DNA of 45,469 nucleotides from a virus. Both the position numbers and the translations under genes were made by a program. A model generated the notes under the pieces. The model was not told where the DNA came from. It saw only the letters and a program-made list of their open reading frames with translations, and searched no databases. Location of the stretch: UHGV virus genome UHGV-0206691, one strand, 5' to 3'. The stretch's first letter is position 1, and every line of letters begins with the position of its first letter. This document shows positions 42,768 through 44,375 of this stretch, piece by piece.

Positions 42768-43028
42768 TCAAGCCCCATACCCGATACCCCACATAACTAA
42801 CATCCCAACCGCCACACCAATCAGAATAGATACTGTTGTATTCGTCCACGCCCGCTGGCTACGCAAAGTCTCGGCGTTCTCCAGAATGTCGCGAACACGC
42901 GTTAAGTGTTCAACTTCCAGTTTCGCAGCGATTAGTTCCTGTGTCGCTTTTGAATATTTACCGTTCATCTTATCCAGCGCCTTCTTAAGGTCTTTGTTGT
43001 TCTTCTTGAGTTGTTCAATCTGTTCCAT
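42768..43028 (-). CDS. coiled-coil protein with C-terminal TM anchor (86 aa)
   Basis: ORF track; N-terminal charged coiled-coil then SILIGVAVGMLVMWGIGYG. Confidence 0.4.
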   Translation of the reverse strand: MEQIEQLKKNNKDLKKALDKMNGKYSKATQELIAAKLEVEHLTRVRDILENAETLRSQRAWTNTTVSILIGVAVGMLVMWGIGYGA

Positions 43029-43030
43029 AA

Positions 43031-43213
43031 CTACCCCACTATCTCATCACCAAGCCACGCCGTTTCTCGTATATCGTCGACCACACACGCGGCGTGCTCA
43101 CGGCTAATTGCAAAAATGTAGAAGCTGAACTTCTTCCCGTCGGCGTCGATGTGGTTAACCGAGTAAGGTTTCCACAGGACACCATCGATAACTACTGGCT
43201 CAGGCACTTTCAT
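43031..43213 (-). CDS. hypothetical protein (about 60 aa)
   Basis: ORF track 43031..43261 trimmed to ATG (MKVPEPVVIDG) with ATGA overlap. Confidence 0.35.
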   Translation of the reverse strand: MKVPEPVVIDGVLWKPYSVNHIDADGKKFSFYIFAISREHAACVVDDIRETAWLGDEIVG

Positions 43214-43499
43214 CTGGAAACAGTCCAAGACCACTAAGCATATCAGTAATTTCTGACTCAAGTCGTTGGCCTAACGCTGATTTAGTACAGTGTTCGGCCC
43301 ACTCCCCTGATTGCAGCAATCCAATCATATTTTCTATGTCAGACGCGATGGTTAGTAGTTCTTTAAACGCCTCTAGTAACTCCTTAAACGCCTCCAGTTG
43401 AAACTCACCGTTAATTGACAGTTGCCCGCCTAACGTCTGCTTCTCTGACTCAAGCACCTGAATACGGCGCTCGAGTGATGCGATTGTGATTTTAGGCAT
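43200..43499 (-). CDS. hypothetical coiled-coil protein with internal EAFKELL tandem repeat
   Basis: ORF track 43200..43565 trimmed to ATG (MPKITIASLERR) after AAAGGTGA. Confidence 0.4.
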   Translation of the reverse strand: MPKITIASLERRIQVLESEKQTLGGQLSINGEFQLEAFKELLEAFKELLTIASDIENMIGLLQSGEWAEHCTKSALGQRLESEITDMLSGLGLFPDESA

Positions 43500-43677
43500 T
43501 GGTGTCACCTTTGTTAAGGTTGAAGCGATTAATAAGTCCACGGCGCGTCTCGTAAAGCGACTCAACCATTTGCTCGGCTACAGCGATTTTAGTATTCAGG
43601 ACGTGCATCACGAGACCGATATCTACGCCGCTGTTAACAGCCTCCACCATCATCTTTTCGTATTCGCGGTCAGTCAT
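43492..43677 (-). CDS. hypothetical protein (61 aa)
   Basis: ORF track; start overlaps upstream stop. Confidence 0.4.
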   Translation of the reverse strand: MTDREYEKMMVEAVNSGVDIGLVMHVLNTKIAVAEQMVESLYETRRGLINRFNLNKGDTNA

Positions 43678-43831
43678 TTTTACGCTCTCCCCACATGCGA
43701 TTGAGATACTTGTTCTTGTCAGGCCCTGGGAAACTGTTACGTTTCATCAGTTCCTCGCGTGACGGGAACGGGGTGTGGTTGACTTTCTTGCCGGCTGATG
43801 GTGTCGTGATATTCCCTTCTGACTCGTTCAT
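43670..43831 (-). CDS. small hypothetical protein (53 aa)
   Basis: own reading MNESEGNITTPSAGKKVNHTPFPSREELMKRNSFPGPDKNKYLNRMWGERKND; GCAGGAGAGAAG RBS; overlapping stop/start on both sides. Confidence 0.3.
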   Translation of the reverse strand: MNESEGNITTPSAGKKVNHTPFPSREELMKRNSFPGPDKNKYLNRMWGERKND

Positions 43832-44228: not shown

Positions 44229-44257
44229 AATATAATAGGGTCGATGGTAATAGTCAA
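44229..44257 (-). promoter_or_regulatory. sigma70-type promoter TTGACT-N17-TATATT
   Basis: minus strand TTGACTattaccatcgaccctatTATATT, about 35 nt upstream of gene 43983..44195. Confidence 0.55.
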
Positions 44258-44286
44258 CTAGTCATTACAGAAAATAGATAAAAAAA

Positions 44287-44311
44287 ATCCCGGCTGGGTC
44301 AGGGCCGGGAT
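44287..44311 (-). terminator. intrinsic terminator after lysis cassette
   Basis: ATCCCGGCtgggtcagggCCGGGAT stem-loop; plus-strand A8 run gives T-run on minus strand; lies about 65 nt past endolysin stop. Confidence 0.6.
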
Positions 44312-44375
44312 AAAACTGGAGAGCAGAGGGATGGAACAGGAGGTGATTTAAGTATCGTCGGGTTAGCCTTAAGTG

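Follow-up and report, generated by a model that had tools for sequence, protein, structure and literature searches.

The locus described here raises the question of how a small phage gene came to encode the same seven residues twice in succession, and whether this state is recent and unstable or old and established. The window, that is, the whole stretch of DNA analyzed, is a viral genome of 45,469 nucleotides (UHGV-0206691). In the original prediction, two adjacent 21-nt units encoding EAFKELL, differing at one or two bases, were placed at 43361–43400 within a minus-strand gene (43200–43499), and were taken to reflect a recent slipped-strand duplication in a possibly length-variable region.

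Two heptad units in a small minus-strand gene

Direct reading of the gene bears out the two adjacent units, and locates them at 43353–43394, 6–8 nt from the predicted position. Specifically, copy 1 occupies 43374–43394 (minus strand; GAGGCGTTTAAGGAGTTACTA, EAFKELL, residues 36–42) and is followed by copy 2 at 43353–43373 (minus strand; GAGGCGTTTAAAGAACTACTA, EAFKELL, residues 43–49). The copies differ at three of 21 bases rather than at one or two (AAG/AAA, GAG/GAA and TTA/CTA), which corresponds to a divergence of 14%, and all three differences are synonymous transitions. The chance of three differences all being synonymous is ~0.013 over all substitutions and 0.08 over transitions only, and weakly suggests that both copies may be under purifying selection (p about 0.01–0.08).

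No other tandem of period 15–60 in the 45.5-kb window reaches 85.7% identity, and the unit was found nowhere else in it. In first-order Markov simulations, a period-21 tandem with at least 18 of 21 matches occurred in 0 of 300 runs, and one of any period from 15 to 60 in 12 of 300. Tandem Repeats Finder, run at its lowest threshold, gave no report for the repeat because two copies with three mismatches score below its floor, and it was replaced by direct counting together with these simulations. The repeat thus exceeds chance, and homologous genes exactly 21 nt shorter demonstrate independently that it is a genuine one-unit indel. An assembly artefact was also considered and rejected, as the same two-copy sequence is present in an independent assembly (L013, discussed below).

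Gene boundaries and genomic context

With respect to gene boundaries, a mechanical list of open reading frames starts the repeat gene at a TTG at 43565 (43200–43565, minus strand). The annotated Kagunavirus homologues all begin at the ATG equivalent to 43499, upstream of which lies a Shine–Dalgarno-like AAGGTG, and the reading frame from this ATG to the TGA at 43200 encodes 99 residues. The ATG is overlapped by the stop codon of the upstream small gene (43492–43677, minus strand; 61 aa, PHROG 1402) in the arrangement ATGCCTAA. The downstream small gene (43031–43213, minus strand; 60 aa, PHROG 10509) was likewise listed in a long, TTG-initiated version (43031–43261, minus strand); its ATG at 43213 lies 14 nt inside the 3′ end of the repeat gene, and the homologous downstream coding sequences of phages Bas75 and Bas71 overlap by the same 14 nt. 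The annotated relatives and the overlapping ATG/stop arrangements (ATGCCTAA and ATGAAAGTGCCTGA) thus indicate that both genes are shorter than the listed frames and would be translationally coupled, with starts at 43499 and 43213.

The repeat gene is one of a series of small minus-strand genes that overlap one another and separate the lysis genes from the terminase; others in the series encode a DUF2737 protein, a NinH-like protein and members of several PHROGs without assigned function. The last 20.5 kb of the window is 89–91% identical to Kagunavirus-like Escherichia coli phages over 76–89% of its length, and the neighbors of the repeat gene (DUF2737, NinH-like, lysozyme and terminase) agree with annotated Kagunavirus loci. 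Judged by its sequence, the window is the genome of a Kagunavirus (Guernseyvirinae) siphovirus, ~90% identical to E. coli Kagunavirus phages.

The 99-residue product, MPKITIASLERRIQVLESEKQTLGGQLSINGEFQLEAFKELLEAFKELLTIASDIENMIGLLQSGEWAEHCTKSALGQRLESEITDMLSGLGLFPDESA, is an exact match to NCBI nr entry DAO35429.1 ('MAG TPA: hypothetical protein [Caudoviricetes sp.]'), so that the window is probably a metagenomic phage genome with third-party annotation, and is predicted to be all-helical. Its N-terminal half matches PHROG 9023 (E = 1.4e-23) and PHROG 10200 (4.3e-19) over residues 1–47 only, and its C-terminal half matches PHROG 19524 and 20174 at ~1e-9. The best Pfam score for the protein was 14 bits against a cut-off of 32, and Pfam gave nothing above threshold for the neighboring proteins or for seven alternative C-terminal modules. 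One may guess that the product is a small oligomerizing or adaptor protein with swappable effector ends. The BASEL phage paper describes Bas70–76 and is silent on the repeat gene (PMC11990801).

At the nucleotide level, Rfam gave no match in 43000–43800, and promoter and terminator scans around the gene gave nothing beyond chance at the repeat. Some distance away, the stretch that separates the lysozyme gene from the small gene next to it (44229–44335, minus strand) contains a sigma-70-like promoter match of 10/12 (44257–44229) and sub-threshold Rfam sRNA matches to RF02278 (25 bits) and RF02837 (19.6 bits), far below the gathering score; both kinds of match are probably due to chance.

Unit number among relatives

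A comparison of copy number among relatives shows that it varies, and the identical two-copy state is not found everywhere. In GenBank, 116 phage records match, of which 21 cover the gene and the other 95 share only its first ~140 nt; six of these loci were read directly. Two units are present in 11 of the 21 covering records, namely 590B (QVR48628.1), AnnaReinhart_Bas75 (XPK40519.1), Bas70, Bas72–74, Bas76, DUEC01, KMB35, XY2 and SXAU_B4, in all of which the product is annotated as 'hypothetical protein'. The remaining 10, some of them duplicated, have one unit and are exactly 21 nt shorter (phiEc3, K-01, Ro145clw, Ro145c2YLVW, Bas71, NTEC3 and SCS92).

Protein clusters were inspected for the best 120 of 273 matches. 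Among these, 35 clusters that carry the same kind of C-terminal module as the window (type A, described below) have one unit and 92 residues, and only two have two units and 99 residues: P0001, which is the window type and has 2 members, and P0002, which is the Bas75 type and has 48. All 15 listed members of the 48 in P0002 are 99 residues long, and one member occurs on 72 contigs. Of 25 related contigs in IMG/VR, 2 carry two units, in each case of the Bas75 type. All two-copy alleles thus fall into two groups, the window type and the Bas75/590B type, and one unit (92 aa) appears to be the commonest state of the family. No three-copy allele was seen among the GenBank phages, in IMG/VR or in the best 120 of 273 protein clusters.

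Several further observations were made in these searches. When JGI metagenome contigs were scanned for the two-copy pattern, 20 matches came up, none of them Kagunavirus and all of them chance helical repeats in unrelated sequences; one of three IMG/VR pattern matches (L011) was likewise rejected as unrelated. Among the best 120 of 273 protein matches, an ENA contig carries an 84-residue type-A allele (P0038) that has lost eight residues in frame (EFQLEAFK), and with them the greater part of the heptad unit; this is an independent, second indel at that site. Database entries for Escherichia coli assemblies also include proteins of the P0002 cluster (e.g. P0121: WP_447476814.1 and HDN3064082.1), and the 72 contigs with the Bas75-type protein are ~44–45 kb in length, suggesting that E. 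coli isolates frequently bring a Kagunavirus genome along with them or have one assembled together with their own.

Age of the duplication and probable direction of change

The key evidence for the age of the window's duplication comes from the metagenomic contig L013 (Logan SRR31227972), which is 96.4% identical to the window over a gapless 474-nt block and contains exactly the same 42-nt repeat. The duplication is therefore older than the split between the window and L013. Together with the 14% divergence between copies, this argues against the 'recent' date given in the original prediction.

The clearest change in unit number among near-identical genomes probably runs the other way. From locus position 93 to 1087, Bas75 and Bas71 are free of substitutions and differ solely by a 21-nt gap. 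Two-unit alleles 8% different from Bas75 exist (L014), so the one-unit state of Bas71 would most simply be a recent deletion from two units. The unit retained in Bas71 equals copy 2 of Bas75, which places the putative crossover inside the shared GAGGCGT. This is the one recent two-to-one difference among near-identical genomes, in which only states 1 and 2 occur, and the two-copy clusters are uniform in unit number. On these comparisons, the duplication appears old rather than recent, and the locus dimorphic (one or two units) rather than hypervariable.

A boundary between constant and exchangeable modules

The position of the repeat within the gene is also informative. Alignments show that the constant N-terminal block (43374–43499, minus strand; residues 1–42) is near-invariant in all relatives. 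The type-A C-terminal module (43214–43352, minus strand) starts TIASDIENMIGLLQSGEWAEHC, and its place is taken in relatives by at least six other unrelated modules. The sequence after the unit thus falls into at least seven unrelated classes, including type A, a C-x-H...C-x2-C class (79 aa), the RP180 class (98 aa) and types of 61, 63, 67 and 95/96 aa, in addition to 50-aa truncations. Nucleotide homology to non-type-A alleles stops at gene nucleotides 116–127 in all but two alleles, which coincides with the 3′ end of copy 1, and conserved DNA resumes in all relatives ~14 nt before the stop of the repeat gene, at the start of the downstream gene. The window's type-A module is itself mosaic, with a Bas75-like middle and a phiEc3-like 3′ end, and in NTEC3 a phiEc3-like unit is joined to a remainder of Bas75-like sequence. 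Taken together, these alignments indicate that the heptad unit sits where a near-invariant N-terminal module gives way to exchangeable C-terminal ones.

The diversity of C-termini on the common N-terminus can be followed across loci L007–L009 and L021–L040, and the C-x-H...C-x2-C motif of one module is zinc-ribbon-like. Three IMG/VR contigs (L024, L025 and L034; gene 701–853) carry 50-aa truncated alleles that end in EAFKLLLERMKNESA directly before the stop codon. These look like RP180-type genes from which the whole C-terminal module has been deleted, so that only the constant block remains, together with the nucleotides shared with the next gene.

Predicted structure of the one- and two-unit forms

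AlphaFold2 monomer models were obtained for the window protein (mean pLDDT 78.7) and for a one-unit protein (P0019, mean pLDDT 83.2), both resting on shallow alignments of 35–38 sequences. The two models share the same four helices, and only the second, H2, changes: it spans residues 29–64 with two units and 29–57 with one, or 36 as compared to 29 residues. The repeat (residues 36–49) lies in a confidently predicted part of H2 (pLDDT 87–96 over residues 31–50), and the constant N-terminal block is modeled as a helix–loop–helix composed of H1 (residues 6–22) and the start of H2 (pLDDT 94–96). Foldseek returned only the protein's own family among viral models and no PDB match with E <1.

Written in rows of seven, H2 reads INGEFQL / EAFKELL / EAFKELL / TIASDIE / NMIGLLQ, with its hydrophobic residues in columns 3 and 6–7, such that the heptad register (xxFxxLL) is kept throughout. 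Consistent with this register, the direction of the hydrophobic moment drifts smoothly along H2 in both forms. In standard helix geometry, one heptad amounts to two turns, or about 1 nm. In the models, then, the one-heptad insert lengthens H2 by two turns with its hydrophobic register kept.

Origin of the second unit

In terms of origin, we consider it probable that the repeat is an old, fixed, in-frame duplication of one heptad at the helix/module junction of a Kagunavirus accessory gene, with a single origin and occasional loss. The sequence [A/T]IASD comes after every two-copy allele and, among single-unit alleles, is found only in Bas71, which favors a single origin. Most likely, the two-copy state would have arisen once, in the ancestor of alleles whose module begins with [A/T]IASD, after which the copies would have diverged from each other. 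The second copy would occasionally have been lost by deletion between the repeats, as proposed above for Bas71. Because the insert is exactly one heptad and keeps the register, the protein would be expected to tolerate both lengths of H2, and the change may be structurally neutral.

Codon usage complicates a simple single origin. Units across the family show one of two usages, AAG-xxG-TTR-CTY, found in most one-unit alleles, or AAA-GAR-CTW-CWR, found in L018, L022, Bas71, copy 2 of all two-unit alleles and copy 1 of the Bas75 type. Copy 1 of the window is of the former kind and 2 nt from the phiEc3 unit, whereas copy 2 is of the latter kind and 1 nt from both the L018 unit (IMG/VR) and copy 1 of P0002 (ENA); this second usage matches that of units ahead of type-A modules. 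Copy 1 thus follows the usage of single-copy alleles in the window and the other usage in the Bas75 type, which would imply either later gene conversion or recombination, or two origins. The pattern fits two histories: an out-of-register joint, or an old slippage, after which copy 1 diverged or was converted when the constant block was exchanged. Unit-to-unit distances were also tried as a discriminator between slippage and recombination and set aside, as these arguments rest on 1–5 differences in 21-nt units, too few for the purpose.

The principal alternative, which we regard as possible though rather unlikely, is that recombination out of register, for example during co-infection, produced a joint that kept the heptads of both parental alleles, making the duplication a scar of module exchange. 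In its favor, the position of the unit coincides exactly with the mosaic boundary described above, and the gene is clearly recombinogenic, as the intragenic mosaics of the NTEC3 and window alleles attest. Copy 1 also shares the usage of the constant block in most alleles and copy 2 that of units ahead of type-A-like modules, with the copies themselves 3 nt apart; yet a comparison of two differences with three in 21 nt is non-discriminating, and convergence is easy where so few synonymous choices exist. The Bas75-type copies, moreover, share a single codon usage, which recombination does not predict, and a joint 21 nt out of register would have had merely 2–3 nt of microhomology (ACT/CT) to work with. 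What this account does predict is a pair of single-copy parents, one with a constant block ending AAGGAGTTACTA and the other with a type-A module starting AAAGAACTACTA followed by ACCATC. For the window's repeat, recombination at the mosaic junction and slippage fit about equally well, so the slipped-strand origin put forward in the original prediction is not borne out.

A more speculative proposal, to which we attach a low probability, gives the heptad a function. EAFKxLL would be the built-in linker of a cassette system in which a constant 42-residue helix–loop–helix handle, for oligomerization or docking, is recombined with at least seven C-terminal effector modules (candidate roles being host takeover or counter-defence), and the number of heptads would set distance and orientation. 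Were this so, the duplication would be a step of functional tuning or a scar of module exchange rather than neutral noise.

It is very unlikely that a recent slipped-strand duplication has created a length-hypervariable, contingency-like region. Such a region would be in keeping with the change in unit number between the otherwise identical Bas75 and Bas71 sequences and with the further in-frame indel, the eight-residue loss in P0038, but the copies are 14% diverged and are found unchanged in a relative 96.4% identical over the surrounding block. Rather than the several-unit array of a phase-variable locus, there are only two units, 86% identical, and one or two copies are seen but never three; in the Bas75-type cluster of 48, each of the 15 members listed has 99 aa. 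The 21-nt unit is also a multiple of three inside an open reading frame, so that both forms are complete reading frames and the change cannot switch expression. Variation in length between one and two units was thus correctly anticipated, and hypervariability was not found. Least probable of all is a DNA-level element such as two protein-binding sites 21 bp apart, a spacing that would equal two turns of B-DNA, with coding incidental: a single unit is what most relatives carry, the window contains no further occurrence of it, the two copies differ at synonymous sites, which points to conservation of the peptide rather than the DNA, and a regulatory DNA or RNA role is rejected because the promoter, terminator and Rfam scans are at chance level at the repeat.

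Significance and comparison with known systems

Taken by itself the favored reading, an old one-heptad duplication, matters little and has no bearing on any long-standing open question. It provides a tidy natural example of a helix changing by exactly one heptad, as well as of a short repeat that can come and go at a mosaic junction, and may offer a marker by which to type alleles of Kagunavirus phages, a group used as therapy candidates and synthetic-biology chassis. Of greatest interest is the combination of a constant N-terminus with swappable C-termini. This architecture is often seen in phage accessory and counter-defence genes, and the gene may deserve functional attention.

Among known alleles, those of Bas75 and 590B share with the window the same position in the Kagunavirus genome, a length of 99 residues and two heptads followed by [A/T]IASDIENMIGLLQSGEWAEHC, and their DNA is 88–90% identical. 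Unlike the window, they pair EAYKELL with EAFKELQ, 4/21 nt apart in these alleles (3–4/21 nt across the Bas75 type) and with one codon usage for both, and their C-terminal 25 residues belong to another subtype (CLVEAPDEHA as compared to GLGLFPDESA). The single-copy type-A alleles, represented by phiEc3 (QZI78342.1), Ro145clw, NTEC3, LotteLoewe_Bas71 (XPK42153.1) and the 35 clusters of 92 aa among the best 120 of 273 matches, are orthologous to the window gene, with the same N-terminal block, the same modeled C-terminal fold and all helices in common, but are exactly 21 nt (7 aa) shorter, with a modeled H2 of 29 rather than 36 residues. Alleles with other C-terminal modules, including BUCT789, phiWAO78-1 (79 aa), RP180 (98 aa) and others of 50–96 aa (PHROG 9023 and 10200), occupy the same slot with overlapping neighbors and are ~90% identical in the DNA for residues 1–42 and in those residues themselves, whereas after the heptad unit they are unrelated, and a second unit is found in none.

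More broadly, coiled-coil proteins change helix length in whole heptads with the register kept, as exemplified by engineered length variants of E. coli Lpp. The event described here is ordinary in kind, an in-frame one-heptad polymorphism at a mosaic junction of a phage ORFan, and its likeness to the Lpp-type variants, a whole-heptad change in length with the register kept, is in this case seen in predicted monomer models.
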